This document shows positions 6,776 to 43,917 of a DNA stretch of 64,000 nucleotides, in pieces. Made by a program: the position numbers and the translations under genes. This DNA comes from Acidobacteriota bacterium (GTDB lineage Bacteria; Acidobacteriota; Vicinamibacteria; Marinacidobacterales; Marinacidobacteraceae). The notes beneath the pieces were generated by a model that was given only the letters and a program-made list of their open reading frames with translations, had not been told where the DNA came from and made no database searches. The stretch is from assembly GCA_022826195.1 (NCBI GenBank), contig JAJDVI010000012.1:71583-135582 (forward strand), given 5' to 3'. The first letter of the stretch is position 1; the number at the start of each line of letters is the position of its first letter.

Positions 6776-6845
6776 GGTGCGCGAGCGTTTCCTGGGTGTT
6801 ACACTGGCCTGCACATGCACACTTTGAATGTGCAACACAACGACA

Positions 6846-7132
6846 TGTCCAGAATCCACCTCATCGTTACCGAGGCCCAGAAGGTCCGCTACCAGGGCCA
6901 GGCGGCCCGCGAGGGAAAGTCGCTCGGCGCCTGGCTGCGCGAAGCCGCGGAGGAGAGAATCAGCCGCCCGGCCGCAAGACGCTTCGGCACGCCGGAGGAG
7001 GTGCGCACGTATCTCGAGGGATGCTGGGAACGGGCGGCCGCTGGCGGTGGTCCGGACCGCGAACCCGATTGGGAAGAGACGAAGAAGCTCATCCTCGATT
7101 CGAAGATTCGCGGGCCCGAAGAGTTCGCGTGA
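6846..7132 (+). CDS. vapB: Ribbon-helix-helix antitoxin (VapB/CopG-like)
   Basis: MSRIHLIVTEAQKVRYQGQAAREGKSLGAWLREAAEE RHH fold; directly upstream of and overlapping the PIN gene; alternative ATG at 6817. Confidence 0.6.
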
Positions 7133-7530
7133 CCTTCATCGAGACGAACGTCTTCCTGTTCGCGGTCGGACGACCGCATCCCTTGAGGGAGGAAGCCCTT
7201 CGCGTGCTCGACCGGGGGATGCGGAGCAGTACGGAGTTCGTTACCTCGGCGGAGGTCCTTCAGGAGGTGCTCCACGTGTTTTCGCGGCGCCGACTCCTGG
7301 AGCGTTGCGACGACGCGTTCGGACTGGTCGAACGGGTGGTCTCGGATGTGTGGTCGCTGGAGCCGGAGGATGTCGCGCTTGCCCGGACATTGGCCGACCG
7401 CCACCCCGAGCTCGAAGCGCGCGATCTCGTCCATATGGCCTGTTGCCTGCGGCGGCAGGCGACCGATCTCGTCACCTTCGACCGCGGTCTCGCCGCCGCC
7501 TGGGCGCGGCGGTCGCGATCCCGGCCGTAG
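7129..7530 (+). CDS. vapC: PIN-domain ribonuclease toxin VapC
   Basis: GTG start overlapping vapB stop; PIN acidic residues (IETN, EVLQEV, ARDLV, TFD); ~133 aa. Confidence 0.7.
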   Translation: MTFIETNVFLFAVGRPHPLREEALRVLDRGMRSSTEFVTSAEVLQEVLHVFSRRRLLERCDDAFGLVERVVSDVWSLEPEDVALARTLADRHPELEARDLVHMACCLRRQATDLVTFDRGLAAAWARRSRSRP

Positions 7531-7637: not shown

Positions 7638-7952
7638 CTACCCCGAGACCCGCTCGGAGTCCCCGGCCTTCGGCCAGAGCCGCTCGAGGTGCAGGTCCTT
7701 CGCCGCCGCAACCGCCTGCGCAAGGTCGTAGTTCGCCTGCAACCGGTACCAGGCCCCGGCGCCGCCGCCGAACACCTTTTCGAGCCGAATGGCCATCGTC
7801 GGGGAGATCCCCACGCGGCAGTTCACTAACGCCGACAACTGTTTCCGGCTGACTCCGAGCTTCTTTGCGGCTTCAGCGACCGTCAACCCCAGCGGCTCGA
7901 TGCAGTCATGCAGCACTGACAGGCCGGGGTGTGGCGGGTTCTCCCTGGTCAT
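7638..7952 (-). CDS. higA: HigA-family HTH (XRE) antitoxin-like protein, no cognate HigB adjacent
   Basis: HPGLSVLHDCIEPLGLTVAEAAKKLGVSRKQLSALVNCRVGISPTMAIRLEKVFGGGAGAWYRLQANYDL is the canonical HigA fold. Confidence 0.65.
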   Translation of the reverse strand: MTRENPPHPGLSVLHDCIEPLGLTVAEAAKKLGVSRKQLSALVNCRVGISPTMAIRLEKVFGGGAGAWYRLQANYDLAQAVAAAKDLHLERLWPKAGDSERVSG

Positions 7953-7956
7953 TGGG

Positions 7957-9177
7957 TCACTCGTCCGTCGGTCCCGGCAAGTCCTCCAGCAAGCCCTCCC
8001 GGTACGGGAACAGCGCTGGGGTGCCGCCGGTGTGGAGGAAGACCACCACGTCGGTGTCGCTGAATTGGCCGTTGCGCGCCATGTCGAACAGACCCGTCAT
8101 GGCCTTCCCGGTATAGACCGGATCGAGGAGGATTCCCTCGGTCCGGGCGGTCAACGCGATCGTCTCCACGACGTCCTCGTTCAGGATGCCGTAGCCCTCG
8201 CCGACGTATTCGTCGTGGACCACCACGTCAGAGGGGCCGACTTCCAGGTCGAGCCCCATCGCCTCAACCGTCTCCTGCGCGATGGCGAGCACGTTCGCTT
8301 CGCTCGGGGCCTTGCTGCCGCCGGTGCTGATCCCGATGATCCGCACGTCGGGCGCGAGCATCTTCGCCCCGACCACGAGCCCGGCCTGGGTGCTGCCGGA
8401 GCCCGAGGCGTGGACCACGTGGGTGATCGTCACGCCGGCGTCGCGCGCCTGGGCGACGAGCTCCCGGAAGCAGTTCGCGTAGGCGACCGAGCCGAGCGGC
8501 AGCACCATGTCGCCACCCGTGCGCGAGCCGCCCACGGACACCACGTAGGGATTCCGTCCCGCCTCGCGTTCCGTCGCGGCGATCTCGTCCACCATCGCCT
8601 CCCGGTCCTCGCCCGGCTCGATGATGCGCACGTCGGCGCCCAGAATCCGGTCGAGCAGCAGGTTGCCGTCCGCGGGCGCTACCGACTGGTCCTCCCGGCG
8701 CGCCAGGACGAGGATCGGGTCCATGCCCAGCCGCCGCGAACCGGCGGCCGTCATCCGCGCCCAGTTGGACTGCACGCCGGCCCAGGTGATCACGCTGTCG
8801 CTGCCTTTCGCGACCGCGTCGGCGAGGATGAAGTCGAGCTTTCGCGCCTTGTTGCCGCCGAAGGCGAGCCCGGTCTGGTCGTCACGCTTGACGAACAGGC
8901 GGGGGCCGCCGAGTTCCGCGGCGAGTGTGGGCATCTCCTCGAAGGGGGTCGGGAGGTGAGCGAGCGGGGCCTGTTCGAAACGGCCGACGGCCTCGTCGAA
9001 GATGGTCATGGGGTCGGTGGTGTCTCCTTCCAGGTCGCCGGCGCCGGCGCCGCCGCAGGCGGAAAGACTGGCGGCGAGGAGGCCCCCACCGGCGACCATC
9101 GAGATTGAGCGGAGTGCGTTCACGGGCAGTCCTCCAGGGCGGGCGAGTTTACGCAGGCAGATCCGGAAGGGTGTCAT
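7957..9177 (-). CDS. PLP-dependent ACC deaminase / D-cysteine desulfhydrase family protein, probable lipoprotein
   Basis: GGNKARKLDFILADA (PLP-lysine motif), family-typical glycine-rich stretch; LSAC lipobox; true start may be internal (MVAGGG at ~9099). Confidence 0.7.
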   Translation of the reverse strand: MTPFRICLRKLARPGGLPVNALRSISMVAGGGLLAASLSACGGAGAGDLEGDTTDPMTIFDEAVGRFEQAPLAHLPTPFEEMPTLAAELGGPRLFVKRDDQTGLAFGGNKARKLDFILADAVAKGSDSVITWAGVQSNWARMTAAGSRRLGMDPILVLARREDQSVAPADGNLLLDRILGADVRIIEPGEDREAMVDEIAATEREAGRNPYVVSVGGSRTGGDMVLPLGSVAYANCFRELVAQARDAGVTITHVVHASGSGSTQAGLVVGAKMLAPDVRIIGISTGGSKAPSEANVLAIAQETVEAMGLDLEVGPSDVVVHDEYVGEGYGILNEDVVETIALTARTEGILLDPVYTGKAMTGLFDMARNGQFSDTDVVVFLHTGGTPALFPYREGLLEDLPGPTDE

Positions 9178-9204
9178 TCGACGACTCCGGAGCCGTCCGC
9201 CGGG

Positions 9205-9362
9205 TCAGGCATGTGTCTAATCCGGGTTCGGAGGGCGAGGCATGTGTCCTATTGGGAGTCGGCTGAATCCGGGCATGCGTCAATTCCGGGTTCGGGAAGC
9301 GAGGCATGTGTCCATTTCGGAGCCGGCTGAATCCGGGCACGTGTCCATTGGGAGCCCTGCCG
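9205..9362. repeat. Tandem repeat, ~63-bp unit (two alternating ~32-bp subunits) x ~2.5, lower GC than surroundings
   Basis: subunits GCATGTGTC(T/C)AAT..CCGGGTTCGG.A.GCGAG and GCATGTGTCC.ATT.GGAG.CGGCTGAATCCGG repeated at 9207, 9238, 9270, 9302, 9334. Confidence 0.7.
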
Positions 9363-9394
9363 GTTCAAGCGGCGCGCCGTGAGGTGGTTGGGGT

Positions 9395-9475
9395 TGCGAC
9401 GTGCGCGGCGCGGCGCGCCGCGCGTGCCGGTCTGAAGACCGGCGGTCCCGGCCGGCGCGCCATGGGGAGGCGGTT
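9395..9475. repeat. REP-like repeat (GTGCCGGTCTGAAGACCGGCG variant)
   Basis: GTGCGCGGCGCGGCGCGCCGCGCGTGCCGGTCTGAAGACCGGCGG aligns with 32540-32590. Confidence 0.65.
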
Positions 9476-9517
9476 CCGGGCCCCTCACTAGAATCACGCC
9501 GCGTCAGGAAGCACTGT

Positions 9518-11125
9518 TTGGCCCGGCTCAAGTCCCACATCTCGACGGACTCCGACGAGTTCCGGGCGAATGAGGCGCATAACCGCGCACTCTGCGAGAC
9601 GCTCCAGGAGCGGCTGGCCGAGGCCCGCCAGGGGGGCGGCGGCCGGGCGCGGACCCGGCACGCCGAGCAGGGGAAGCTCTTCGTGCGGGAGCGGATCGAA
9701 CGGCTCGCCGATCCGGGTTCGCCGTTTCTGGAGATCGGACCGCTCGCCGCCCACGACTGCTACGACGCTCCCACTCCGGCCGCCGGCCTGGTCACCGGGG
9801 TGGCCTCGGTTTCGGGACGACTCGTCATGGTGGTCGCGAACGACGCCACCGTGAAGGGCGGGACCTACTACCCGCTGACCGTCAAGAAGCACCTCCGCGC
9901 CCAGGAGATCGCGGACCGCTGCGAACTGCCCTGCGTGTACCTCGTGGACAGCGGAGGGGCGTTCCTGCCGCTCCAGGCCGAGGTTTTCCCCGACCGCGAC
10001 CACTTCGGCCGGATCTTCCGCAACCAGGCGGTCATGAGCGCCCGCGGCATCCCGCAACTCGCGGCGGTGATGGGCATGTGCACGGCGGGGGGCGCCTACG
10101 TCCCCGCCATGAGCGACGAGGCCGTCATCGTCGAGGGCACGGGGACCATCTACCTCGGCGGCCCGCCGCTCGTGAAGGCCGCCACCGGCGAGGAGGTGAG
10201 TCCCGAGGAACTCGGAGGGGCCCGGGTCCACACCGAGCGTTCCGGGGTGGCGGACCACCTCGCGGAGGACGACGCCGCGGCCATCCGGATCCTCCGGGAA
10301 GCCGTCGGACGGCTGCCCGCCGGCAACCGAGACCCCATCCGCGACGCCGACCCCGAGCCGCCCGACTACCCGGAGGAGGAGATCCTCGGCATCTGGCCGC
10401 GAGACCGCCGGGTCCGGGTGGACATCCGCGAGACGCTCGCCCGGCTCCTCGACGGAAGCCGCCTCGACGAGTTCAAGGCGCGCTACGGGACGACGCTCGT
10501 GACCGGCTTCGGCCGTATCGAGGGGATCACGGTCGGGATCGTGGCCAGCAACGGCGTCCTCTTCAGCAAGAGCGGGCTGAAGGGCGCGCACTTCGTCCAG
10601 CTCTGCGCCCGCGAGGGTCTGCCGCTGCTCTTCGTCCAGGACATCACCGGGTTCATGGTCGGGGCCCGCTACGAGCAGGGCGGGATCGCCAAGGACGGGG
10701 CCAAGATGGTGAACGCGGTGGCGACCGCGGAGGTGCCCAAGCTCACCCTGATCGCGGGCGGCAGCTTCGGCGCCGGCAACTACGCCATGTGCGGGCGGGC
10801 CTACGATCCGGCCTTCGCCTGGTCCTGGCCGGCGAGCCGCATTTCGGTGATGGGAGGGGAACAGGCCGCCTCCGTCCTGGTCCAGGTCAAGCGCGATCAG
10901 CGCGAGCGCGCCGGCGAGGAGCTGAGCGGTGCCGAAGCCGACGAGATCGCGACACCCGTGCGGGAGAAGTACGAACGCGAGGGGAGCCCCTACTACGCGA
11001 CCGCGCGTCTTTGGGACGACGGCATCGTGGACATGCGGCACACGCGCCGGACGCTCGCCCTGAGCCTGGCGGCCGCCGCGAACGCGCCCGTTCGGAGCTC
11101 CGGGCACGGCATCTTCCGGATGTAG
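9518..11125 (+). CDS. Biotin-dependent acyl-CoA carboxylase, carboxyltransferase (beta) subunit (methylcrotonyl-/geranyl-CoA carboxylase type)
   Basis: strong family similarity across ~530 aa ([50 protein letters not shown]); start is uncertain (no ATG; TTG/CTG near 9518); upstream part of the ORF is REP sequence. Confidence 0.8.
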
Positions 11126-11145
11126 GGATCCGGGAGCGCCGCATC

Positions 11146-13035
11146 GTGAAGCGAACCGTCCGGGTCGGAAACGCCGGCGGCTACTGGGGAGACGATCCGC
11201 GGGCGCTCCGGTCCCAGGTGCTGGGGCCGGAGCCTCCCGAGTTCGTGACCGCGGACTTCCTGGCCGAGATCACGATGAGCATCCTGCAAAAGCAGCGCGC
11301 CCGGGATCCCGAGGCCGGCTACGCCCGCGACTTCGTGAGCCAGGTCGCTCCGCTCCTCGGCGCCATCCGGGAACGCGGGATCACCGTCATCACGAACGCG
11401 GGTGGGGTGAATCCGGGAGGCTGCGCCCGCGCGGTGCTCCGCGCGGCGACGGAAGCCGGAGTCGAACTGACGGTGGCGGTGGTGGACGGCGATGACCTGT
11501 TGGGCCGGCTCGACGCGTTCCTCGACGACGGGATCCGGTTCGACAACCTGGAAACCGGCGAACCGTTCGGGCCCCGGCGGGCCGACGTCCTGTCGGCGAA
11601 CGCCTACTTCGGCGCCGAGCCGATCGTCCGGGCGCTCGCCCATCAGCCGGACGTGGTCGTCACCGGGCGCGTCACGGACACCGGCATCACCCTCGCCCCT
11701 ATCCGGCACGCCCACGGCTGGGACCCCGACGACTGGCAGCGGATCGCGGGCGGCATCGTGGCGGGACACCTGATCGAGTGCGGGGTGCAGGCCACCGGCG
11801 GGAACTTCACCGACTGGGAGCGGGTTCCCGGACTCGGCAACGAGGGCTTCCCGGTCGTCGAGGTCGAGGAGGACGGCGCCTTCGTGCTGACGAAGCAGCC
11901 CGGAACGGGCGGCCTGGTGTCCCCTGCGGTCGTCCGGGAACAACTGCTCTACGAGATGGGCGACCCGGAGCGCTACCTGTGCCCGGACGCGACCGTGGAC
12001 TTCTCCGGTCTCACCGTGACGGCTGCGGGAGAGGGTCGGGTGCGGGTCCGGGGGGCGCGGGGAGGGCCGCCTCCCGGCGACCTCAAGGTGAGCGCGTCGG
12101 TCCGGGGCGGCTTCAGCACCCGCGGCAGCCTGGTGGTCGGGGGGCCGGATGTCCGGGCGAAGACGGCGGCCCTCGAAGCCGCTTTCCGGGATCGGCTGCG
12201 GACCGACTGCGAGGCCGCGGGTGTTCCTTTCCCCGCCGAGTTCCGCGTGGACCTCGCGGGCGCGGACGCCGCCCAGCGCGGGCTCGCCGACGCCGCGCGC
12301 CTCGATCCGTCCGAGGGACTCGTCCGCTTCGCCGCCTGGAGCCCGACCCGGGAGCCGCTGCACGTCTTCCGCAAGCTGCTCCCCAGTTTCATCCTCAGCG
12401 GTCCCGCCGGACTCGCGGTCACGGGAGGCGCCCCGGCGATCTCCGAGGTGGTCGGCTACTGGCCGGCGCTCGTCCCCCGGGACCGGGTCCCGGCGTCCGT
12501 CCGGGTGATCCGGGTTTCCGCGGGCGGAACCGAAACCGTGGTCGGCGAGGAAAAGGTGCGTTTCGAGGGGCCGACCGCTCCGGCGAACGCGCCGTCGGCG
12601 GCCGGCAAGCGCTCGCAGACCGGCGTCGCGGCATCGGGCCCCCTGATCGAGACACCCCTCGGCTCGGTGGCGCACGCCCGCAGCGGAGACAAGGGGGACG
12701 CGGCCAACATCGGGATCGTCGGCCGGAGCGCCGCCTGCTACGAGTGGCTCCGCGAGCAGTTGACCACGGAGCTCGTCGGGGAGTGGGTGAGGGACGTGGC
12801 CCGGGGTCCGATCGTCCGCTACGAGGTGCCCGGGCTCTGGGCTCTCAACTTCATCCTGGAGCGGGCGCTCGGGGGCGGCGGCACCCGGAGCCTGCTCCTC
12901 GACCCGCAGGGCAAGACCTTGGCGCAGGGAATCCTCCGCCGGCGCGTCCGGATCCCGGCCGCTCTCCTAGCCACGATCCCTCCCGAAAACCGCCCGCGCT
13001 CCCCGGGGTTCGCCGCTCCTTTCTCTGCCTCATGA
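11146..13035 (+). CDS. atuA: AtuA-like protein (acyclic terpene utilization; DUF1446 N-terminal + DUF4387-like C-terminal)
   Basis: N-terminus VRVGNAGGYWGDDP...TADFLAEITMSILQKQRARDPEAGYARDFV is characteristic of DUF1446/AtuA; GTG start 11146; 629 aa. Confidence 0.65.
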   Translation: MKRTVRVGNAGGYWGDDPRALRSQVLGPEPPEFVTADFLAEITMSILQKQRARDPEAGYARDFVSQVAPLLGAIRERGITVITNAGGVNPGGCARAVLRAATEAGVELTVAVVDGDDLLGRLDAFLDDGIRFDNLETGEPFGPRRADVLSANAYFGAEPIVRALAHQPDVVVTGRVTDTGITLAPIRHAHGWDPDDWQRIAGGIVAGHLIECGVQATGGNFTDWERVPGLGNEGFPVVEVEEDGAFVLTKQPGTGGLVSPAVVREQLLYEMGDPERYLCPDATVDFSGLTVTAAGEGRVRVRGARGGPPPGDLKVSASVRGGFSTRGSLVVGGPDVRAKTAALEAAFRDRLRTDCEAAGVPFPAEFRVDLAGADAAQRGLADAARLDPSEGLVRFAAWSPTREPLHVFRKLLPSFILSGPAGLAVTGGAPAISEVVGYWPALVPRDRVPASVRVIRVSAGGTETVVGEEKVRFEGPTAPANAPSAAGKRSQTGVAASGPLIETPLGSVAHARSGDKGDAANIGIVGRSAACYEWLREQLTTELVGEWVRDVARGPIVRYEVPGLWALNFILERALGGGGTRSLLLDPQGKTLAQGILRRRVRIPAALLATIPPENRPRSPGFAAPFSAS

Positions 13036-13835
13036 GTTCTCCGCATCTTCATCTCGATTTCGCCGCGGACGGCGTCGTCCGCCTGAGCCTCCGGCGTCCG
13101 GAGGCGAGGAACGCGCTGACCCCGGAAATGGTGATCGGGATCCCCCAACTCCTCGAGGAGCTTCGAGCGCTGCCTGCGGAAGAGTGCCGGCTCGTGGTGT
13201 TGCGAGGGGAGGGAAAGGTCTTCTGCGCCGGGGCCGACCTGAAGGCAATGCGCGAGTCCGGGCAGGCGAGCGAGGAGGCGAACCGCGAGGACGCCCGGCG
13301 CTTTGCGACCCTCTTCCGGTCGGTCGCCGCCTTTCCGGCCCCGGTGGTTGCCGCGGTTCAGGGGGCGGCGCTCGGCGGCGGCTTCGGGCTGGCCGTCTGC
13401 GCCGACCACGTCATCGCGGAGGACACCGCTCGCTTCGGTACGCCCGAAGCGCGGCTCGGCCTCGTCCCGGCGGTCATCTCTCCCTACGTGGTACGGCGCC
13501 TGGGGCCGGGCCGCGCCGGCCCGTTCCTGCTGGGCGGCGCCGTGGCCCGGGGGCTTCCCGCCCTCGCCGCCGGCATCGCGCACGAGCTCACCCCGGTGGG
13601 AGGTCTGGAGGACGTGCTCGGGCAGACGGTGGAACGTTTTCTCGGAAGCGCCCCCCGCGCCGTCCGTCGGGCCAAGGCGCTCATGTTGCGGGAGGCTCCG
13701 CTCCCGCCTCGGGATCTGGAGGAGTTGACCATCCGCACCATCGCCGAGGCGCGGGCCTCCGAGGAGGGGCAGGCGGGAACCGCGGCGTTCTTCGCCAAGG
13801 TCCCGCCGCCCTGGGCACCGTCAGGTTCCAGGTAG
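13032..13835 (+). CDS. Enoyl-CoA hydratase/isomerase (crotonase family; methylglutaconyl-/isohexenylglutaconyl-CoA hydratase-like)
   Basis: crotonase motifs VFCAGADLK, AAVQGAALGGGFGLAVCAD, GTPEARLGLVP; ATG overlaps atuA-like stop (ATGA). Confidence 0.8.
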   Translation: MSSPHLHLDFAADGVVRLSLRRPEARNALTPEMVIGIPQLLEELRALPAEECRLVVLRGEGKVFCAGADLKAMRESGQASEEANREDARRFATLFRSVAAFPAPVVAAVQGAALGGGFGLAVCADHVIAEDTARFGTPEARLGLVPAVISPYVVRRLGPGRAGPFLLGGAVARGLPALAAGIAHELTPVGGLEDVLGQTVERFLGSAPRAVRRAKALMLREAPLPPRDLEELTIRTIAEARASEEGQAGTAAFFAKVPPPWAPSGSR

Positions 13836-13844
13836 CGGCTCACG

Positions 13845-15773
13845 GTGTCCACCGCCCCGCGGCTGCTGATCGCGAACCGCGGCGAGATCGCGCGCCGGAT
13901 TCTTCGCACCGCCCGCGCGCGCGGCTGCCCGGTGGCCGTCGTCTCGACCGCCGCCGATCGCGGGGCCCCGGTGCGCGGCGAGGCCGATCGGGTGTTCGAA
14001 GTCCCGGGTTTTCTGGACAGTGAAGCCATCATCGCAGCGGCCACCGGCTGGGACGCCGGACTGCTGCATCCCGGATACGGGTTCTTGTCCGAGAACTCGT
14101 CGTTCGCGGCCGCGGTCGAAGCCGCCGAGATCGCCTTCGTCGGCCCCACCGCAGAGAGCATGCGCCTGCTCGGCGACAAGGAAGCGGCGCGGCGGACCGC
14201 CGTGGCCGCCGGAGTCCCTGTATTGCCCTCGCTCGGGGTGGACGAACTCGCCTCCGAACCGAACCCGGCGGCGGCCGTGGAACAAACCGGGGTGGGTTTC
14301 CCCTGCGCCGTGAAGGCGGCGGCCGGGGGTGGCGGCATCGGCATCCGCGTGGTCCGCCGTCCGGAAGCGCTGGAGGAGGCGCTCTCGACAGCCGCCTCCG
14401 AGGCCCGGGCGGCGTTCGGGGACGGCCGCGTCTACGTGGAACGCTGGCTCGACCGCCCGCGACACGTCGAGATCCAGGTCCTCGGCGACGGACGGGGAGC
14501 CGGAATCCACCTCGGCGAGCGCGAGTGTTCCGTCCAGCGCCGCCGCCAGAAGCTCCTCGAATGGGCGCCGGGATTCGGAATTTCGGCCGACCTGCGGGCC
14601 CGGATGGGGGAAGCCGCGCTGCGGCTCGTGATCGCGACCCGTTACCGGGGTGCCGGGACGGTCGAGTTCCTGCTCGAACCGGACGGGAGCTTCCACTTTC
14701 TGGAGGTGAACACCCGGCTCCAGGTGGAGCACCCGATCACCGAGGAGATCTACGGCGTGGATCTCGTGGACGCGCAACTGGAGATCGCCGCCGGCGGATG
14801 GGCTGCGGCGCTGCCGGATCCGGTTGTCCGAGCGGGGGCGTTCGAACCTCTATCGCCCCGCGGGGCGGCCTTCGAAGCCCGCATCGTCGCCGAGTCGCCG
14901 CGGAACGGATTCGCTCCCAGCCCCGGACGGCTGCGCCGCTACCGCGAGCCGGCGGGAGACGGTGTGCGGGTCGATTCCGGGGTCGTCGAGGGAAGTCCGG
15001 TGCCCCCCGGCTTCGACTCCCTGCTGGCGAAGGTCATCGCCTCCGGGGATTCCCACCCCGCCGCGGCGGCGCGGCTCGCGTCCGCGCTCGAGTGGACGGT
15101 GATTCACGGGGTGGAGACCAACGCTTCGCTCATGGTTTCCGTGCTGCGGCATCCGGATCTGCTCGGCGAACGCGTTCACGCCGGCTGGCTCGAGGGGCGC
15201 ATCGAGGAGGTCGCCGCTTCCCGGCTGGCGCCGGACGTGATGGCGCTGCTGGGGCGTGATGGGGTGGCCGACGCGGTGGCGGCGGCCGCCTCGCGCCGCC
15301 GGACGACCACGGGGGCGGACCTCTTCCGATCGCTCGGTCAGGCGGACGAGTTTCCCCGGGTGGAGCCGGGACGGCGCGCGGGCGAGGTGATGCTCTCGGG
15401 TGCTCCGGTCCGTGACGCGGGGGCCGGCGAGGCGCTGACCGTCACCGCCACCCCGCTCGCCGGCGGGCGCGAGCTGGCGGTCACCGTGGCGGGCGAGACC
15501 CTGGCGCTGCCGCTCTCCGCGGAAGGTGAAGGACTCCGTCGCGGGCATGACTCCGGGGAGATACGGGCGCCGCTCGCCGGCCAGGTCATCCGCATCCTCG
15601 AAGGCGGGAGCAGCGTCGAGGAAGGGGACGTGGTCGCCGTGATCGAGTCCATGAAGATGCACTGGGAGATCCGCGCCCCGGCGGGCGGAGCTCTCGAGGG
15701 CGTGGCTGTCGAACGCGGACAGGCGGTCGCTGCCGGAGCGCTGTTGCTCCGGGTTGCCTCTCCGAGCGAGTGA
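13845..15773 (+). CDS. Biotin-dependent acyl-CoA carboxylase alpha subunit (biotin carboxylase + BCCP)
   Basis: ATP-grasp biotin carboxylase signatures (RLLIANRGEIA, EVNTRLQVEHPITE), C-terminal biotinyl domain with ESMKM; GTG start. Confidence 0.85.
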   Translation: MSTAPRLLIANRGEIARRILRTARARGCPVAVVSTAADRGAPVRGEADRVFEVPGFLDSEAIIAAATGWDAGLLHPGYGFLSENSSFAAAVEAAEIAFVGPTAESMRLLGDKEAARRTAVAAGVPVLPSLGVDELASEPNPAAAVEQTGVGFPCAVKAAAGGGGIGIRVVRRPEALEEALSTAASEARAAFGDGRVYVERWLDRPRHVEIQVLGDGRGAGIHLGERECSVQRRRQKLLEWAPGFGISADLRARMGEAALRLVIATRYRGAGTVEFLLEPDGSFHFLEVNTRLQVEHPITEEIYGVDLVDAQLEIAAGGWAAALPDPVVRAGAFEPLSPRGAAFEARIVAESPRNGFAPSPGRLRRYREPAGDGVRVDSGVVEGSPVPPGFDSLLAKVIASGDSHPAAAARLASALEWTVIHGVETNASLMVSVLRHPDLLGERVHAGWLEGRIEEVAASRLAPDVMALLGRDGVADAVAAAASRRRTTTGADLFRSLGQADEFPRVEPGRRAGEVMLSGAPVRDAGAGEALTVTATPLAGGRELAVTVAGETLALPLSAEGEGLRRGHDSGEIRAPLAGQVIRILEGGSSVEEGDVVAVIESMKMHWEIRAPAGGALEGVAVERGQAVAAGALLLRVASPSE

Positions 15774-15839: not shown

Positions 15840-16421
15840 ATGACACCGGTCGAACGCTACCTGACCTCCCGGGGCCTCAAGGAAACGGACCCGCAGGTCC
15901 TGAACAGCGCTCTCGCGGCGGTCCTGGACGGCATCGAACCGTTGGCGTACGGTGATGCTCCGGGTGGTCTGCCGGCGGCCGAACAGGCGGTCCTCCGTGC
16001 GGGTGGCTTGCAATTGGAGCCACAGCCCGGCCTCGATCCCTTGGCGATGACTGCCGTCAAGTACGCCGCCATCGTCGAGGGGAGCCTCACCGCGCGGGAG
16101 GTTGGCGAACGGTTGAACCTCACCGGGGGCCGAGTGCGTCAGTTGATCGCGGATCGGTCGCTCTACAGCTTCCTGATGGGTAGCCGGCGCCTGATCCCCA
16201 GATTCCAGTTTCGGCCCGATGGCGGGCTGGTACCGAACATTGCTGTTGTCAACCGGGTGTTGAGCCCCGGACTGCATCCCGTGGAGGTCTTCAACTGGCT
16301 TCACGCCAGAAACGCCGATCTCTTCCGGGACGAAGACCTGGATGCCACCGTATCGCCGCTTGACTGGCTCAAGGCGGGATACGAGGCCGCCCGGGTTGCC
16401 CTGCTGGCCCGTCGCCTGTAG
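15840..16421 (+). CDS. Xre-like/DUF2384 antitoxin (ParS/MbcA-like) of a RES-Xre TA pair
   Basis: C-terminal SPLDWLKAGYEAARVALLARRL resembles the DUF2384 C-terminal motif; immediately upstream of a RES-domain gene. Confidence 0.55.
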   Translation: MTPVERYLTSRGLKETDPQVLNSALAAVLDGIEPLAYGDAPGGLPAAEQAVLRAGGLQLEPQPGLDPLAMTAVKYAAIVEGSLTAREVGERLNLTGGRVRQLIADRSLYSFLMGSRRLIPRFQFRPDGGLVPNIAVVNRVLSPGLHPVEVFNWLHARNADLFRDEDLDATVSPLDWLKAGYEAARVALLARRL

Positions 16422-17160: not shown

Positions 17161-17223
17161 ATTCTCGTGACGAGCGGGGTGCGCAGGAGAATCCGTGTGA
17201 GTGGCAGGCCGTACGCTTTCCGA

Positions 17224-18630
17224 ATGGACGCGTCGCCGACTCATCGTCCTGACGAAGGCAGTCGCGGGCTCGATATCTACATCGTCCTCTCCGCGCTGAT
17301 CGCGGTCGCGGCGCTCCTCACCTGGATCATCCCGGCGGGCCGCTACGAGCGCACGGTCCTTCCTGACGGCCGGGAGGCGGTGGTCCCGGGGTCGTACGAG
17401 GTCATCGAGCGGTCGCCGGCGGGCTTTTGGGAGGTGGTGACCGCGATCCCGGACGGGCTGACCGACGCGGCGAGCGTGGTCTTCCTCGTGTTCCTGTGCG
17501 CGGGCTCGGTGGGGGTGATGCGCCGGGCGGGAATCCTGGATCTCGGGGTGAACCGGCTGACCGCGGCTACCGGGCGGCGGGTCGAACTGCTGATCCCGGC
17601 GCTCATGTTCGGCTTCGCCGCGGTTTCGGGCGTGGTGGGGATGCCGGAGCTTTCCATCGCCTACCTGCCGATCGTGACGCCGATGCTCGGACGCCTGGGC
17701 TGCAGACGAACGACGGCGACCGCGGTCGCCCTCCTCCCCACCACGCTCGGTGCGGCGTTCGGCGTGACGGTGCCGGCGACGGTGGGCATCGGGCACATGC
17801 TGGCGGGGCTGCCGATGTTCTCGGGGGCCTCCTACCGGTTCGTGTTCTTCCTGATCGTGCAGGCGGCGGCGGCCATCTTCGTGGTACGGCGGGCCCGGCG
17901 GGAGATCGCCCGGCGCCACGAGCCCTCGGACCCCCGGGAGACCATCGCCGCTTCCGGCGAAGAAGCCGCGCCGGCCGCTTTCCGCGGGCGCCAGAAGGCG
18001 GCGGGCGTTGTGGCGCTCGTGCTGTTCGTGGTGTTCGTTGTTGCGGTTCTGGTGCTGCGCCTCGGGTTCGAGGAGATCGGGGGCGCGTTCGTCGCGATGG
18101 CGGTGGTGGTGTCGCTGGTGGCAGGACGGGGGCTGAACCAGATCTGCACGGACTTCAACGACGCGTTCCGCGAGATCCTGGTGGGCGCCTTGGTGTGCGG
18201 GGTGGCGCGCGGCGTCTCGGTGGTGATGACCAAGGGGATGGTCATGGACACCGTCGTCTACGGCGCCGCGCTGCTCGTCTCGTCGCTCCCGCCGGCGCTG
18301 ACCGCCGTCGGGGTGCTGTTCGGGCAGACGATCTTCAACTTCCTCGTCCCCTCCGGGAGCGGGCAGGCCCTCATCACCCTGCCGATCCTGGTGCCGGTGG
18401 CCGACCTCGCGGGGGTCACCCGGCAGGTGGTGGTGCTCGCCACCCAGTGGGGCGACGGCATCACGAACGTGATCTTCCCGACGTCCGGGTACTTCATGGC
18501 GACGCTCGTGATGGCGCGCGTCGGCCTCCTGCAGTGGATCCGCTACTACCTGCCGCTCTTCGGGATCATTCTCCTGGTCGCGACCGGCGGACTCGTGGTC
18601 GCCCAGCACATACAGCTCGGCCCGTTCTGA
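17224..18630 (+). CDS. YfcC/C4-dicarboxylate anaerobic carrier family membrane transporter
   Basis: ~470 aa polytopic membrane protein with YfcC-family organisation; ATG 17224 in frame with ORF 17167. Confidence 0.65.
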   Translation: MDASPTHRPDEGSRGLDIYIVLSALIAVAALLTWIIPAGRYERTVLPDGREAVVPGSYEVIERSPAGFWEVVTAIPDGLTDAASVVFLVFLCAGSVGVMRRAGILDLGVNRLTAATGRRVELLIPALMFGFAAVSGVVGMPELSIAYLPIVTPMLGRLGCRRTTATAVALLPTTLGAAFGVTVPATVGIGHMLAGLPMFSGASYRFVFFLIVQAAAAIFVVRRARREIARRHEPSDPRETIAASGEEAAPAAFRGRQKAAGVVALVLFVVFVVAVLVLRLGFEEIGGAFVAMAVVVSLVAGRGLNQICTDFNDAFREILVGALVCGVARGVSVVMTKGMVMDTVVYGAALLVSSLPPALTAVGVLFGQTIFNFLVPSGSGQALITLPILVPVADLAGVTRQVVVLATQWGDGITNVIFPTSGYFMATLVMARVGLLQWIRYYLPLFGIILLVATGGLVVAQHIQLGPF

Positions 18631-18637
18631 GGTCACC

Positions 18638-19129
18638 ATGCGAATCGTCAAACTTCCGGTCGAGCCCATGACCGCCGAGTCCTTCGCCCCCTACGGCGAG
18701 GTCATCGAGGCGCGGGAACGGCCGGCCGACGGCCGCCGGTTCTTTCCGGTCGACTTCCGGATCGATGGCCGGACCACGATGGACGTCATCTGGCAACCGG
18801 CCGGGGGAAAGCGGTTCCGGATGCTGGAGCGCCACTTCGCGGTCACCCAGGCGTTCATCCCGCTCGAGGGTGCGCCCGCGGTGGTGGCGGTGGCCCCGCC
18901 CACCGATCTCGACGACGCCGAGGCCGTTCCGAAGCCCGAGGAGGTGCGCGCCTTCCTCATCGATCCGGGGAAGGGGTACGCCTACAGGACCGGGACCTGG
19001 CATTCCCTCGACCGCTACCTGCTCGAGCCGCCGGGCGCCAGCTTCGTGATCCTGAACGTGGATCCCAACCCGACGCAGTTCGTGGACTACGGCGAGCGGT
19101 TCGGGGTGGAGTTCGAGGTGGACGCGTAG
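18638..19129 (+). CDS. Ureidoglycolate lyase (AllA)-like cupin protein
   Basis: AllA-like N-terminus LPVEPMTAESFAPYGEVIE, ~160 aa cupin. Confidence 0.5.
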   Translation: MRIVKLPVEPMTAESFAPYGEVIEARERPADGRRFFPVDFRIDGRTTMDVIWQPAGGKRFRMLERHFAVTQAFIPLEGAPAVVAVAPPTDLDDAEAVPKPEEVRAFLIDPGKGYAYRTGTWHSLDRYLLEPPGASFVILNVDPNPTQFVDYGERFGVEFEVDA

Positions 19130-40658: not shown

Positions 40659-40907
40659 TGGCCCTCGTCCCCGATACCGGGCCGATCGTCGAACGTGCTC
40701 GACTGCGACGATACCGAACCGCTGCGAGCCGTTGAGCTCGGGCGCCGGTACGTGGACCTCGATCTGGGGTTCGTGGATGCGGCCGTGATCGCCATCTGCG
40801 AATCGCTGGGGGAGACGAAAGTCGCGACCCTGGACCGCCGGCACTTCGGCGTCGTCCGCCCCGCGCACTGCGAACGGCTGCGGCTTCTGCCGGAGGGAAA
40901 TGCCTAG
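40658..40907 (+). pseudogene. Degraded PIN-domain (VapC-like) toxin gene: 13-aa N-terminal fragment in one frame, 70-aa C-terminal part in another
   Basis: ATG 40658 gives MALVPDTGPIVER (PIN N-motif) then stop; +1 frame from GTG 40695 gives ...YVDLDLGFVDAAVIAICESLGETKVATLDRRHF (PIN C-motif); total too short for intact PIN. Confidence 0.4.
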
Positions 40908-41085
40908 GGCGAGCCCGCGCCCTCTGTTTTGGTCCTTGCCGGTTCCCCAAGCCTCCGCGGGCTTCTCGTTGCCGGGGTTCCGGCCGGTTGACACGCCCCC
41001 TCCCGAGTCCATACGGTTCGGAATTGGACTGGAGGCGGTTTTGGTCGTCTTCCGGGTCCGCAACTTCCATCTCCAGGGGGTTTGG

Positions 41086-43917
41086 ATGACTCGATCTCGA
41101 AGAGCAATTGGAGGCCTGCTGGCGCTCGGACTCGTCCTTGGCGCCGGCCCGGCGTTCGGCCAGATCACGGGCACGATCCTGGGGAGCGTCTCCGACGACC
41201 AGGGGCTTGTGCTCCCCGGGGCGACGGTGAGCGTCGCCTCGGAACAGCTTCCCGGGGGTCCCCGGATGGCGGTAACGAACGCGTCCGGGCAATACCGCTT
41301 CCCCAACCTGCCTCCCGGCGACTACACGCTGACCATCGAACTCCCGGGCTTCGGGACGTACATCGAGGACGGGATGCAGGTGCTGGTGGGAGGCACGGTA
41401 GAACGGAACGTTTCCCTCACGCTCGCCACCGTCGCCGAGACCGTGACGGTGACCGGTGAGACCCCGGTGGTGGACACCCGCAAATCCGGCGTGTCCACGA
41501 ACTACTCGAGCGAGTACATGGAGAACACTCCGCTCCGCCGGTTCAGCTTCTTCGACTTCACGAAGTCCGCTCCCGGCATGTCGGCGACGAACCCGACGAG
41601 CGGCACCAGCAGTCGGGTCTCCGCCTTCGGCTCCGGGGTGGACGAGAACAAGTACCTGATGGACGGGGTGGACTTCACCGCGCCGGTGTCCGGAGCCGCT
41701 TGGCCGTGGCCGGCCACCGACCTGATCGAGGAAATGGAGATCGTCTCCCTCGGCGCTTCGGCGGAACACGGAAGCGCGGCGGGGGCCGTCTTCAACGTCG
41801 TGACGAAGCAGGGCACGAACGACCTCACGATCACGGCTTCCGGCTACAAGCAGCACAGCGCGCTCACCACCCAGCCCATCAAGCTCAACGCCGACGGCGA
41901 CGAGGATCCGAACGGCTGGGGGTACAACCGGGACCGCTACGACGACTACACGATCCATGGCGGAGGACCGATCATCCGGGACCGGGCGTGGCTCTACGCG
42001 AACTATCAGTACCTGCAGGACTGGGACACCCAGCCCGGGGCGGACCCGCAGTTCCCCCGGAAGTTCGGCGCCCACCGCATGTTCTGGAAGCTGACGGCGG
42101 ACCTCACCCCGAACGTCAAGTTCATGCACACCTACCACGACGACATCTGGGTGATCCCGTCCACGCCGTCGGTGACGCGCCCCTTTTCCACCATCGCCAC
42201 CTTCAGCGGGAAGAACCCCTCGGTGACCTTCGGGCGGATCACGCACGTCCTGAGTTCCGAGACCTTCTATGAGGTCGGGGTATCGGGTTTCTACTCTCCT
42301 CGCGATCTCAGCGAATCGAACAACCCGGGGGTCCCCAACACCCTCGACATCGACAACGGATTCCACTACGGCGGTTACGCGTGGTACGACATCTTCAAGC
42401 AAGCGCGCACCGACGTGAAGGCGAAGGTCAGTCACTTCGCGAGCGACTGGATAGGCGCGGACCACGACTTCAAGTTCGGCGTCGTGTATACGGACGGCTC
42501 CCACAGCGTGCACGGCGGCTATGTGCCCGGCCCCAACTACCCGGGCGGCGTCCGCTACTACATCAACGGCGACGGCAGCCCCTACGGGATTATCACCGGC
42601 ACGACCTACAACATTGGGGGACAGTTCAAGGAGACGTCGGCGTACGTAGAGGACGTCATCAATGTCGGGAACCGCATCACGGTGTCCGCCGGGGTGCGCA
42701 TCGAGTCGGTGCAGGGCCTCAGCCAGGATGTGCCCGACCTGCTGGTGAACGACCTGGTGGCGCTCACGTTCGACGAGCAGGGGACCGTTGCCGGCGCCGG
42801 GGAGCAGTTCAGTTGGACCAACGTGGGGCCGAGGTTCGGCTTCAACATGCGGCTCGACGACGACGGGAAGACCGTCCTGCGCGGCAACTGGGGCCGTTTC
42901 TACCGGACCGCCATCACCGGTGAGCTGAGCGGCATCCACCCCGGGCAGGGAAGCCAGCAGGAGTTCTATTGGAACGAGGAGACCGGGCTCTACGACATCG
43001 AGGGGCCCAAGTACACGGCGAGCACCGACTTCGGGTACGACTCCAATTCCCGGTCGCCGGTGACGGACCAAATGTCCATCGGTTTCGATCGGGAACTCGG
43101 AACCAGCCTCGCCTTCAACTTCACCTACGTCCGCAAGGACCAGAACGACCTGCTCGGCTGGAACGTGGACAACGCGACCTACACGACCGTCCCACACACG
43201 TTCGGCAATGGCCAGACCCTCGACGTCTATCCCATCACGTCGGACCCGAACGCCCGGTTCTACCGTCTCAGCAACGTGGACTGCCAGGGCGTGTCCTATC
43301 GCTGCGATCCGATGTACATGGACTACAACGGCCTCGTGTTCGGCCTTGAAAAGCGGATGTCCGACAACTGGCAGGCCCAGATCAACTACGTCTGGTCGAA
43401 GGCCTACGGGCTCCTGCCTTCAAGCGGGTTCGGGGCGGCGTCCAGCCAGACCACCCGGGTCTACGGCAGCTCGCTGGCCCGGGACCCGAACCAGTTCATC
43501 AACGCCGAGGGCCACCTGTTGAACGACCGGACCCACACGTTCCGGGTCACTGGGACGCTGATGCTGCCCTACGACATCCTGTTCGGCTGGAACTACGCCT
43601 ACTTCAACGGCAAGCCTTGGGCGACGCGCGACCGGGTCGAGCGTGACGTCCTGCCTCAGGGCGGCCGCAGCATCTATCTCGAGAGCCCGGGATCGCAGCG
43701 ACTCGAAGACCAGAACCTGTTGGACTTCCGGATTTCGACATCGGTGTTCCTCGCCGACACGACCCGGTTCGAAGTGTTCGTTGACGCGCTGAACCTCCTG
43801 AACTCGACGTCAACCGAGGACGTAGCGTCCCAGACCTGGGACTCCAGCGTGTTCGGCATCGGCGAGCGCTGGGTGGATCCTCGCCGGCTCATGGTGGGCG
43901 TCAAGATCACCTACTGA
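41086..43917 (+). CDS. Outer-membrane TonB-dependent-receptor-like protein with N-terminal carboxypeptidase-regulatory-like domain
   Basis: signal peptide; GTILGSVSDDQGLVLPGATVSV...NASGQYRFPNLPPGDYTL (CarboxypepD_reg); ~940 aa with a C-terminal Tyr as in outer-membrane beta-barrels. Confidence 0.65.
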   Translation: MTRSRRAIGGLLALGLVLGAGPAFGQITGTILGSVSDDQGLVLPGATVSVASEQLPGGPRMAVTNASGQYRFPNLPPGDYTLTIELPGFGTYIEDGMQVLVGGTVERNVSLTLATVAETVTVTGETPVVDTRKSGVSTNYSSEYMENTPLRRFSFFDFTKSAPGMSATNPTSGTSSRVSAFGSGVDENKYLMDGVDFTAPVSGAAWPWPATDLIEEMEIVSLGASAEHGSAAGAVFNVVTKQGTNDLTITASGYKQHSALTTQPIKLNADGDEDPNGWGYNRDRYDDYTIHGGGPIIRDRAWLYANYQYLQDWDTQPGADPQFPRKFGAHRMFWKLTADLTPNVKFMHTYHDDIWVIPSTPSVTRPFSTIATFSGKNPSVTFGRITHVLSSETFYEVGVSGFYSPRDLSESNNPGVPNTLDIDNGFHYGGYAWYDIFKQARTDVKAKVSHFASDWIGADHDFKFGVVYTDGSHSVHGGYVPGPNYPGGVRYYINGDGSPYGIITGTTYNIGGQFKETSAYVEDVINVGNRITVSAGVRIESVQGLSQDVPDLLVNDLVALTFDEQGTVAGAGEQFSWTNVGPRFGFNMRLDDDGKTVLRGNWGRFYRTAITGELSGIHPGQGSQQEFYWNEETGLYDIEGPKYTASTDFGYDSNSRSPVTDQMSIGFDRELGTSLAFNFTYVRKDQNDLLGWNVDNATYTTVPHTFGNGQTLDVYPITSDPNARFYRLSNVDCQGVSYRCDPMYMDYNGLVFGLEKRMSDNWQAQINYVWSKAYGLLPSSGFGAASSQTTRVYGSSLARDPNQFINAEGHLLNDRTHTFRVTGTLMLPYDILFGWNYAYFNGKPWATRDRVERDVLPQGGRSIYLESPGSQRLEDQNLLDFRISTSVFLADTTRFEVFVDALNLLNSTSTEDVASQTWDSSVFGIGERWVDPRRLMVGVKITY

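Follow-up and report, generated by a model that had tools for sequence, protein, structure and literature searches.

An MCC–hydratase–AtuA gene cassette in Acidobacteriota and a proposed lyase role for its AtuA-family protein in leucine catabolism

Introduction

The DNA considered here, called the window, is a 64-kb stretch (GC content ~70%) from the genome of a soil bacterium of the Vicinamibacteria (Acidobacteriota; assembly GCA_022826195.1, contig JAJDVI010000012.1, positions 71,583 to 135,582). Its forward strand carries, at 9518-15773, a four-gene cluster in which a gene of the AtuA family (DUF1446) is embedded among genes for an acyl-CoA carboxylase and an enoyl-CoA hydratase (ECH). The parts are of known kinds; what appears unusual is their assembly into a pathway of the Liu type in which the last enzyme would be replaced by an AtuA-type lyase, an arrangement kept across several phyla. 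The idea that AtuA is a lyase is not new and dates from the atu literature. The gene content, the type of the carboxylase, the fold of the AtuA-family protein and the company that its gene keeps in related genomes together suggest a specific reaction, the cleavage of 3-hydroxy-3-methylglutaryl-CoA (HMG-CoA), at the end of leucine degradation.

The four-gene cluster

The cluster consists of the following genes.

9518-11125, forward strand: carboxyltransferase (CT) beta subunit, 535 aa; TTG start with AGGAAG 7 nt upstream; PF01039, E=3e-146
11146-13035, forward strand: AtuA-family protein, 629 aa; GTG start; PF07287 and PF23544
13032-13835, forward strand: enoyl-CoA hydratase, 267 aa; PF00378, E=5e-43
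13845-15773, forward strand: biotin carboxylase (BC) with biotin carboxyl carrier protein (BCCP), the alpha subunit, 642 aa; Biotin_carb_N, CPSase_L_D2, Biotin_carb_C and Biotin_lipoyl domains

Domain matches and coordinates bear out the gene content and order given in a preliminary description of this DNA (CT, AtuA-like, ECH, BC alpha). The genes sit exactly where it had placed them, and gene prediction carried out independently on the source contig, a metagenome scaffold (ENA ERZ23491491, KELL22-1 scaffold_140), returns the identical four products. It had also spoken of overlapping start and stop codons, which holds for the AtuA-ECH junction, the sole true overlap in the cluster (ATGA, 13032-13035), but not for the other two: the CT and AtuA genes are spaced by 20 nt that include a GGGAG ribosome-binding site, and the ECH and BC genes by 9 nt. 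The AGGAAG at 9506-9511 is likely the ribosome-binding site serving the TTG start of the CT gene.

A carboxylase of the 3-methylcrotonyl-CoA type

The features that distinguish the beta subunits of 3-methylcrotonyl-CoA carboxylase (MCC), geranyl-CoA carboxylase (GCC) and propionyl-CoA carboxylase (PCC) have been described by Jurado et al. (PMC4673880). MCC-beta carries an active-site Phe that blocks geranyl-CoA, with a 3-residue insertion just before it; GCC-beta has Gly at this position and lacks the insertion; PCC-beta lacks an N-terminal helix, an extension of ~30 residues. Recombinant GCC and MCC holoenzymes are alpha6beta6 assemblies that are active without AtuA (PMC4673880).

The window CT aligns with Pseudomonas aeruginosa MCC-beta (3u9r_B) at 700 bits and 60% identity, gap-free over residues 1-535, and scores 692 bits with Mycobacterium tuberculosis AccD1 and 670 with human MCCB, as against 437 bits with P. 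aeruginosa GCC-beta (5ikl) and at most 266 bits with PCC-beta. Its identity to the AtuC-like CT of Acinetobacter baumannii is only 39%. The N-terminal extension is present, in that the window CT aligns from residue 1 whereas matches to PCC-beta begin at about query residue 20-26. So is the MCC signature: Phe163 (nt 10004-10006) lies in an 11-residue motif that includes the 3-residue insertion, the equivalent stretch reading FPDREHFGRIF in P. aeruginosa MCC-beta and F---TYGGMTF, with Gly and no insertion, in the A. baumannii AtuC-like CT. Phe163 was identified by the insertion and the contrast with Gly; the published number, Phe191, fits neither the native nor the deposited numbering of P. aeruginosa MCC-beta. 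The best solved relative of the alpha subunit is P. aeruginosa MCC-alpha (3u9s_A, E=6e-113), and its biotinyl Lys604 lies within SMKM (nt 15654-15656).

By these sequence criteria the carboxylase is of the 3-methylcrotonyl-CoA (MCC/Liu) type and not of the geranyl-CoA type. The preliminary description had seen a closer resemblance to the atu (GCC) arrangement than to the liu one, a view that does not survive the best matches of both subunits to P. aeruginosa MCC, the 700 against 437 bits of the CT, its Phe and insertion, and the isovaleryl-CoA dehydrogenase (IVD) genes found in related loci. The atu-like features of the cassette are limited to the presence of AtuA and to the affinity of its hydratase. 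Nor does the carboxylase group with PCC, an outcome named beforehand as one that would speak against the preliminary description; the 266-bit ceiling for PCC-beta stands against 700 bits for MCC-beta.

A separate observation concerns the top solved match of the window CT, PDB entry 9tps_A (714 bits, full length), whose deposited name is 'Propionyl CoA carboxylase beta subunit'. Its similarities place it with MCC-beta, so that the name may be generic.

The hydratase has P. aeruginosa AtuE (4zu2) as its best solved relative (E=1.8e-39, 139 bits), and its best NCBIfam models are PRK07468 and the gamma-carboxygeranoyl-CoA hydratase model PRK05674, both under their cut-offs. It is assigned to the LiuC/AtuE group, the subfamily being placed at that level only, and is a predicted 3-methylglutaconyl-CoA hydratase.

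The AtuA-family protein

Profile searches recover two domains in the product of 11146-13035 and uphold its earlier assignment to the AtuA/DUF1446 family. PF07287 (AtuA/DUF1446) matches residues 5-453 with E=2e-134 and 449 bits, against a gathering cut-off of 22.8, over profile positions 1-436 of 437; PF23544 (AtuA_ferredoxin, formerly DUF4387) matches residues 504-601 with E=8e-26. The domains and their motifs, all on the forward strand, are as follows.

11158-12504, forward strand: AtuA (DUF1446) domain, residues 5-453 (Pfam)
11170-11196, forward strand: family-invariant motif NAGGYWGDD, AtuA domain
11395-11415, forward strand: family-invariant motif NAGGVNP, AtuA domain
11665-11685, forward strand: family-invariant motif GRVTDTG, AtuA domain
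11764-11784, forward strand: family-invariant motif GHLIECG, AtuA domain
11944-11967, forward strand: family-invariant motif LLYEMGDP, AtuA domain
12655-12948, forward strand: AtuA_ferredoxin domain, residues 504-601; counterpart of the separate small subunit of the CmlAB type
12676-12699, forward strand: invariant motif ARSGDKGD, AtuA_ferredoxin domain

An AlphaFold2 model of the protein, built with 36 homologues, is confident, with a pLDDT of 86.3 and a pTM of 0.88. Compared by Foldseek with the PDB, it has one significant match, 9evf_A, deposited as 'Citramalate lyase - ADP - pyruvate complex' (E=1.5e-24, TM 0.76 on the target, 19% identity). The modelled fold is thus that of CmlA, the only solved member of the family. 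The match to CmlA in sequence is weak (E=1e-4 with a single sequence, 2e-5 with a profile), and the family link is carried mainly by Pfam and structure.

In the window protein, a large module like CmlA and a small one like CmlB/DUF4387 are fused in one chain. Consistent with this reading, when the large- and small-subunit genes are concatenated, those of Roseomonas and those of a haloarchaeon match it over both domains at 37-39% identity. The polar residues that are invariant across MCC-linked, GCC-linked and split archaeal and alphaproteobacterial members are all present (among them N84, R175, D178, H208, E211, C212, Y269, E270, K314, R512, D515 and K516), and R175, D178, E211, C212, Y269 and E270, together with C93, are also kept in CmlA. 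Retention of the invariant set argues for a working enzyme over a scaffold.

The family is very large, with at least 7341 proteins at E<=1e-10 among 8000 scored candidates. In annotated records the relatives go by no more specific names than 'acyclic terpene utilization AtuA family protein' and 'DUF1446 domain-containing protein', and an NCBIfam scan of the window protein returned no family.

Reactions of AtuA relatives

A DUF1446 gene of undefined function was noted in 2015 downstream of methylaspartate ammonia-lyase in enterobacteria, in clusters for glutamate/methylaspartate fermentation where a citramalate-cleaving activity was missing (PMC4682846). CmlAB is described by its users in a preprint as cleaving citramalate to pyruvate and acetate (bioRxiv 10.64898/2026.01.16.699985). 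Its structures from Raoultella planticola were deposited as AMPPNP-citramalate and ADP-pyruvate complexes (PDB 9ERQ and 9EVF), ligands which show nucleotide binding alongside the substrate as well as alongside the product. A second case is ThnQ/ThnS of the anaerobic naphthalene degrader N47, presented as an AtuA-like C-C lyase in a review that cites unpublished data; it would convert a CoA ester with a tertiary hydroxyl to 3-oxoazeloyl-CoA with the thioester kept, a thiolase acting next (PMC12016498). AtuA itself has been tentatively named a 3-hydroxy-3-isohexenylglutaryl-CoA (HIHG-CoA):acetate lyase (PMC4847356). In all three of these reported or proposed reactions, the C-C bond that is broken joins a tertiary carbinol carbon to the alpha carbon of a free carboxylate group.

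The statement that the role of AtuA is still undefined has consequently been overtaken, given a citramalate lyase within the family (CmlAB) and an AtuA-like C-C lyase reported for ThnQS. The literature searched contains no paper tying AtuA to MCC or leucine clusters and none mentioning DUF4387.

Gene context in related genomes

One scan of GTDB species genomes yielded 80 loci with AtuA proteins 43-99% identical to that of the window, the closest records being Acidobacteriota/Vicinamibacteria metagenome-assembled genomes (MAGs) at 91-95%. A carboxylase subunit gene adjoins AtuA in 58 of the 80, in Acidobacteriota, Bdellovibrionota, Ignavibacteriales, Fibrobacteraceae and others. Relatives whose AtuA is as little as 43-55% identical still have the cassette, set between flanks that vary, which indicates that the clustering is more than chance. 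All 47 scorable AtuA-adjacent CTs of related loci carry the MCC signature.

Gene order varies with lineage. The exact order of the window, CT-AtuA-ECH-BC, is found in Acidobacteriota (Vicinamibacteria, Holophagae, Thermoanaerobaculaceae and 'Marinacidobacterales'), in Silvanigrellales and in one betaproteobacterial MAG; in Ignavibacteriales it is AtuA-CT-ECH-BC. A Fibrobacteraceae locus (L066) reads IVD-CT-ECH-BC-AtuA, which is the order of liuABCDE except that AtuA takes the place of liuE; its acyl-CoA dehydrogenase (ACAD) is a clear IVD (615 bits) and its CT is 71% identical to P. aeruginosa MCC-beta. An adjacent ACAD occurs in 17 of the 58 loci, and that of the L030 group likewise finds its best match in IVD (383 bits vs 312 for the second-best class). 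In 12 loci AtuA has thiolase genes nearby, which fits a 3-oxoacyl-CoA product.

Even with tblastn relaxed to E<=1, no sequence resembling HMG-CoA lyase was detected in the 1.64 Mb of DNA around AtuA that the window and 92 related loci provide. The human HMGCL seed used was validated (Pfam PF00682, E=5e-80; 547 plasmid matches), and the positive control was the lyase gene found directly after BC in Azospirillum. Within the 64-kb window, no ACAD, thiolase or HMG-CoA lyase came up in phmmer and tblastn searches started from validated seeds or in Pfam scans that took in the other large genes, in agreement with the preliminary description as regards the dehydrogenase and the lyase. The AtuB/AtuG dehydrogenases, AtuD, AtuH and a TetR-type AtuR do not adjoin the cassette.

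Annotated plasmid records place AtuA in clusters closer to the atu model. That of A. baumannii has a TetR gene and then AtuA-SDR-CT-ACAD-ECH-BC (SDR, short-chain dehydrogenase/reductase); that of Achromobacter has ligase-CT-ACAD-ECH-BC-AtuA and then thiolase-HADH (HADH, 3-hydroxyacyl-CoA dehydrogenase); Rhodococcus has CT-BC-ECH-x-AtuA-ACAD-ligase-TetR, x being a further gene, and Sulfitobacter ECH-AtuA-BC-BCCP-CT. On the Sulfitobacter alexandrii plasmid (L088) the CT (12785-14392) combines the MCC-type 3-residue insertion with Ala in place of the selectivity Phe (FPDKFAAGRIF), and BC and BCCP, the two parts of the alpha subunit, each have a gene of their own; this carboxylase may represent an intermediate substrate class.

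Split AtuA genes occur in surroundings that lack a carboxylase. On a Roseomonas mucosa plasmid (L092, 6556-9661) the large and small genes accompany a LysR regulator and a citrate:proton symporter, with no CoA-related genes, which suggests that the lyase resembles CmlAB and acts on a free hydroxy di- or tricarboxylic acid. A plasmid of Halalkalicoccus sp. FCH27 (L090, 7730-10669) carries a dicarboxylate symporter, a 'degradative' HMG-CoA reductase, the split AtuA large gene and a 108-aa small subunit; the stop of the reductase gene overlaps the start of the large-subunit gene, and the product of the reductase is HMG-CoA. In Pseudomonas mevalonii, mvaAB pairs a degradative HMG-CoA reductase with HMG-CoA lyase. 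The haloarchaeal locus looks like such a mevalonate-catabolic pair, with AtuA where HMG-CoA lyase would be.

A further nine loci (L054, L056, L064, L065, L072, L077, L078, L079 and L086, with AtuA at ~10001-11800), from Eisenbacteria, Methylomirabilota, Udaeobacter and similar MAGs, have no carboxylase within 10 kb. Upstream of AtuA and on the other strand they have genes for a thiolase, an aldehyde dehydrogenase and a 3-hydroxyacyl-CoA dehydrogenase, as well as one for a BioY biotin transporter.

Proposed pathway

Family, fold and context statistics are direct outputs of the searches; from them we infer substrate, products and physiological role. The four genes would form a self-contained module for removing a beta-methyl branch in the leucine/isovalerate catabolism of the Vicinamibacteria host. 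As a first step, the MCC-type alpha and beta subunits, whose family is established and whose activity is predicted, would carboxylate the gamma-methyl group of 3-methylcrotonyl-CoA to give 3-methylglutaconyl-CoA. The LiuC/AtuE-like hydratase, going by its family, would then add water to form HMG-CoA. Finally, as fold, family precedent and gene context suggest, the AtuA fusion lyase would cleave the C-C bond beside the tertiary carbinol of HMG-CoA, with the free carboxymethyl arm as leaving group and acetoacetyl-CoA and acetate as products (C3-C4 cleavage). These products follow by analogy from the reactions on citramalate, the ThnQS substrate and HIHG-CoA, the last giving a 3-oxoacyl-CoA and acetate. 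The canonical HMG-CoA lyase cleaves C2-C3 and yields acetyl-CoA and acetoacetate. AtuA would thus stand in for the DRE-TIM HMG-CoA lyase (LiuE) as a non-homologous enzyme. In members acting on CoA esters, the nucleotide pocket may be where the ADP portion of CoA sits, or else a nucleotide may join catalysis. A biosynthetic role in the reverse direction, like the Myxococcus isovaleryl-CoA pathway, was considered and rejected, the ATP-dependent MCC and the adjacent IVD genes pointing to catabolism.

We assign a probability of roughly 0.6 to the reading of the cluster as an MCC-hydratase-AtuA module in which AtuA cleaves HMG-CoA in place of HMG-CoA lyase. Several observations weigh against it. 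The window has no IVD gene of its own, and the absence of HMG-CoA lyase in the host covers only the 64 kb of its genome that were searched. Most Oligoflexia loci (L047-L053, L057, L062, L063) are CT-AtuA-BC with no hydratase between AtuA and BC, so that there the gene for the hydratase must lie at another site or the step proceed in another way, and the Holophagae ACAD upstream of CT is not assignable as an IVD, being slightly closer to short-chain ACADs. The function is transferred from CmlA at 19% identity, from ThnQS data that a review cites as unpublished, and from gene context, and the regiochemistry giving acetate and acetoacetyl-CoA is drawn from analogy alone. The nucleotide ligands of CmlAB hint that a nucleotide may take part in the mechanism. 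The precedent of AtuA is itself contested, since the HIHG-CoA lyase step in P. aeruginosa has also been given to LiuE (PMC4097962).

The broader claim, to which we give even odds, is that this represents a widespread alternative ending of leucine catabolism, in which an AtuA-type lyase replaces the DRE-TIM HMG-CoA lyase and releases acetoacetyl-CoA and acetate, perhaps aided by a nucleotide cofactor, in Acidobacteriota, Bdellovibrionota (Oligoflexia, Silvanigrellales), Ignavibacteriales, Fibrobacteraceae and others; the literature searched does not describe it. If true, it would provide a functional annotation for thousands of AtuA/DUF1446 genes and correct metabolic reconstructions in which Acidobacteriota and other phyla would appear to have an incomplete leucine degradation. 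Acetoacetyl-CoA would be formed directly, with no need for an acetoacetate-activating enzyme, and acetate would have to be activated instead. By extension, such an ending would settle the role of AtuA in terpene degradation, in support of the old proposal in which acyclic terpene degradation has AtuA rather than LiuE as its dedicated lyase. A cassette of MCC, hydratase and AtuA without HMG-CoA lyase, whose substrate HMG-CoA is commercially available, is probably the simplest system in which to examine the lyase hypothesis.

Alternative explanations

The alternative that fares best keeps AtuA as an HMG-CoA lyase and changes its chemistry, which would be nucleotide-dependent (yielding, for example, acetyl phosphate) or of canonical regiochemistry (acetyl-CoA and acetoacetate). 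Cleavage beside a free carboxylate is chemically hard without activation, and the only solved family member was deposited with AMPPNP and ADP. We nonetheless regard this variant as unlikely: the users of CmlAB describe direct cleavage to pyruvate and acetate, the ThnQS product, as reported, keeps its CoA thioester on the 3-oxo acid, and the nucleotide pocket could simply accommodate the ADP moiety of CoA in CoA-ester substrates.

A true acyclic-terpene module of the Atu kind, acting on geranyl-CoA-like, long branched or isoprenoid acyl-CoAs with AtuA cleaving a 3-hydroxy-3-alkylglutaryl-CoA, seems rather improbable. AtuA is the hallmark of atu clusters, the annotated atu-like clusters share the set of CT, ECH, BC and AtuA, the best solved relative of the window hydratase is AtuE, and the window AtuA is ~40% identical to that of the atuABCDEF-like cluster of A. 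baumannii. The carboxylase tells otherwise, with its geranyl-CoA-blocking Phe and MCC insertion and its 60% identity to MCC-beta as against 39% to the AtuC-like CT; the CTs of the atu-like plasmid clusters have Gly and no insertion. The auxiliary atu genes are not adjacent to the cassette, and it is IVD that appears in related loci.

That AtuA is an accessory of the carboxylase, in assembly, in substrate delivery or channelling, or in carboxylation itself, as the preliminary description had argued, is very improbable: the gene does lie between those of the two subunits and is translationally coupled to its downstream neighbour, the CT/BC linkage is kept in 58 of 80 loci and BioY adjoins AtuA where the carboxylase is missing, but the holoenzymes of GCC and MCC need no AtuA for activity (PMC4673880), CmlAB, ThnQS and the split AtuA proteins encoded beside transporters or HMG-CoA reductase work or occur without a carboxylase, the position of AtuA varies (between CT and ECH, before CT, after BC) unlike that of a stoichiometric subunit, and in L066 the gene holds the slot of the lyase, liuE.

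Flanking DNA

The flanking genes have no relation to the operon in function; its neighbourhood contains the following features.

7638-7952, reverse strand: HTH_3 regulator, divergent from the operon
7957-9177, reverse strand: PLP-dependent enzyme resembling D-cysteine desulfhydrase/D-cysteate sulfo-lyase (CuyA), below equivalog cut-offs (PLP, pyridoxal phosphate)
9178-9517, no strand: intergenic DNA between the operon and the divergent PLP-enzyme gene; presumed from its position alone to hold the operon promoter
15840-16421, forward strand: helix-turn-helix (HTH) protein with weak excisionase/sigma-70 r4-like matches, directly after the operon
16428/16647-17066, forward strand: RES-domain protein, directly downstream of the HTH protein
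17167-18630, forward strand: DcuC/YfcC-family transporter, downstream of the HTH-RES pair
18638-19129, forward strand: ureidoglycolate-lyase-like protein, beginning 8 nt past the transporter

The scan for promoters and terminators gave nothing above shuffled sequence, with no sigma-70 consensus in 9178-9517; the inverted repeats upstream of the operon are GC-rich palindromes only, of no evident significance, and Rfam at gathering thresholds returned no family in the entire window. The HTH and RES genes probably form an Xre/RES-type toxin-antitoxin pair. In a 70%-identical relative (L003) their spot is taken by DDE transposase genes (14742-15439), so that the site after the operon looks like one of variable insertion. 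The transporter and the ureidoglycolate-lyase-like gene may constitute a separate small operon.

Two further observations lie apart from the cassette. A small open reading frame and a PIN-domain protein at ~6815-7530 (forward strand) resemble a VapBC pair, and the GC content dips to 0.637 at 42-44 kb, against ~0.70 elsewhere, within a gene for a CarboxypepD_reg/Plug/outer-membrane beta-barrel protein resembling a TonB-dependent receptor (40900-43917, forward strand).

Comparison with known systems

Close to the cassette in composition is the liu operon of Pseudomonas (liuABCDE), which likewise encodes MCC alpha and beta subunits and a hydratase of the LiuC/AtuE group on one strand, and relatives of the window cassette add an IVD in the position of liuA. 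The window differs in having no PF00682 HMG-CoA lyase and in carrying the AtuA gene instead, between CT and ECH, as well as in the absence of IVD and of a LiuR-type regulator. An annotated canonical example is Azospirillum argentinense Az39 p2, with the order IVD-thiolase-ACAD-CT-ECH-BC-HMG-CoA lyase.

With the atu cluster of Pseudomonas (atuRABCDEFGH), represented here by that of A. baumannii, the window shares a fused AtuA of ~600 aa (~40% identical), CT, ECH and BC, and a logic of carboxylation, hydration and cleavage. It departs from it in its CT, which is MCC-type with Phe and insertion where the other has Gly and no insertion, and the predicted substrate is C5 and not C10.

Within the AtuA family, CmlAB shares the fold of the window protein and, at 19% identity, is not its orthologue. 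It consists of two separate subunits that act on a free dicarboxylic acid, (S)-citramalate, with no carboxylase, whereas the window protein is a fused chain in the context of an acyl-CoA carboxylase. ThnQ/ThnS, as reported, is an AtuA-family lyase that turns a CoA ester with a tertiary hydroxyl into a 3-oxoacyl-CoA, the same chemistry that is proposed for the window AtuA; it differs in being encoded by two genes, in its ring-opening substrate and in having no biotin carboxylase partner.

The last comparison is with HMG-CoA lyase itself (LiuE/MvaB/HMGCL; DRE-TIM, PF00682). Its fold and family are unrelated to those of AtuA, and it cleaves C2-C3 where C3-C4 is predicted for the AtuA type. It is nevertheless the proposed functional analogue of the window protein: both would act on one substrate at one point of the pathway, and in L066 AtuA sits in the operon slot of the lyase.

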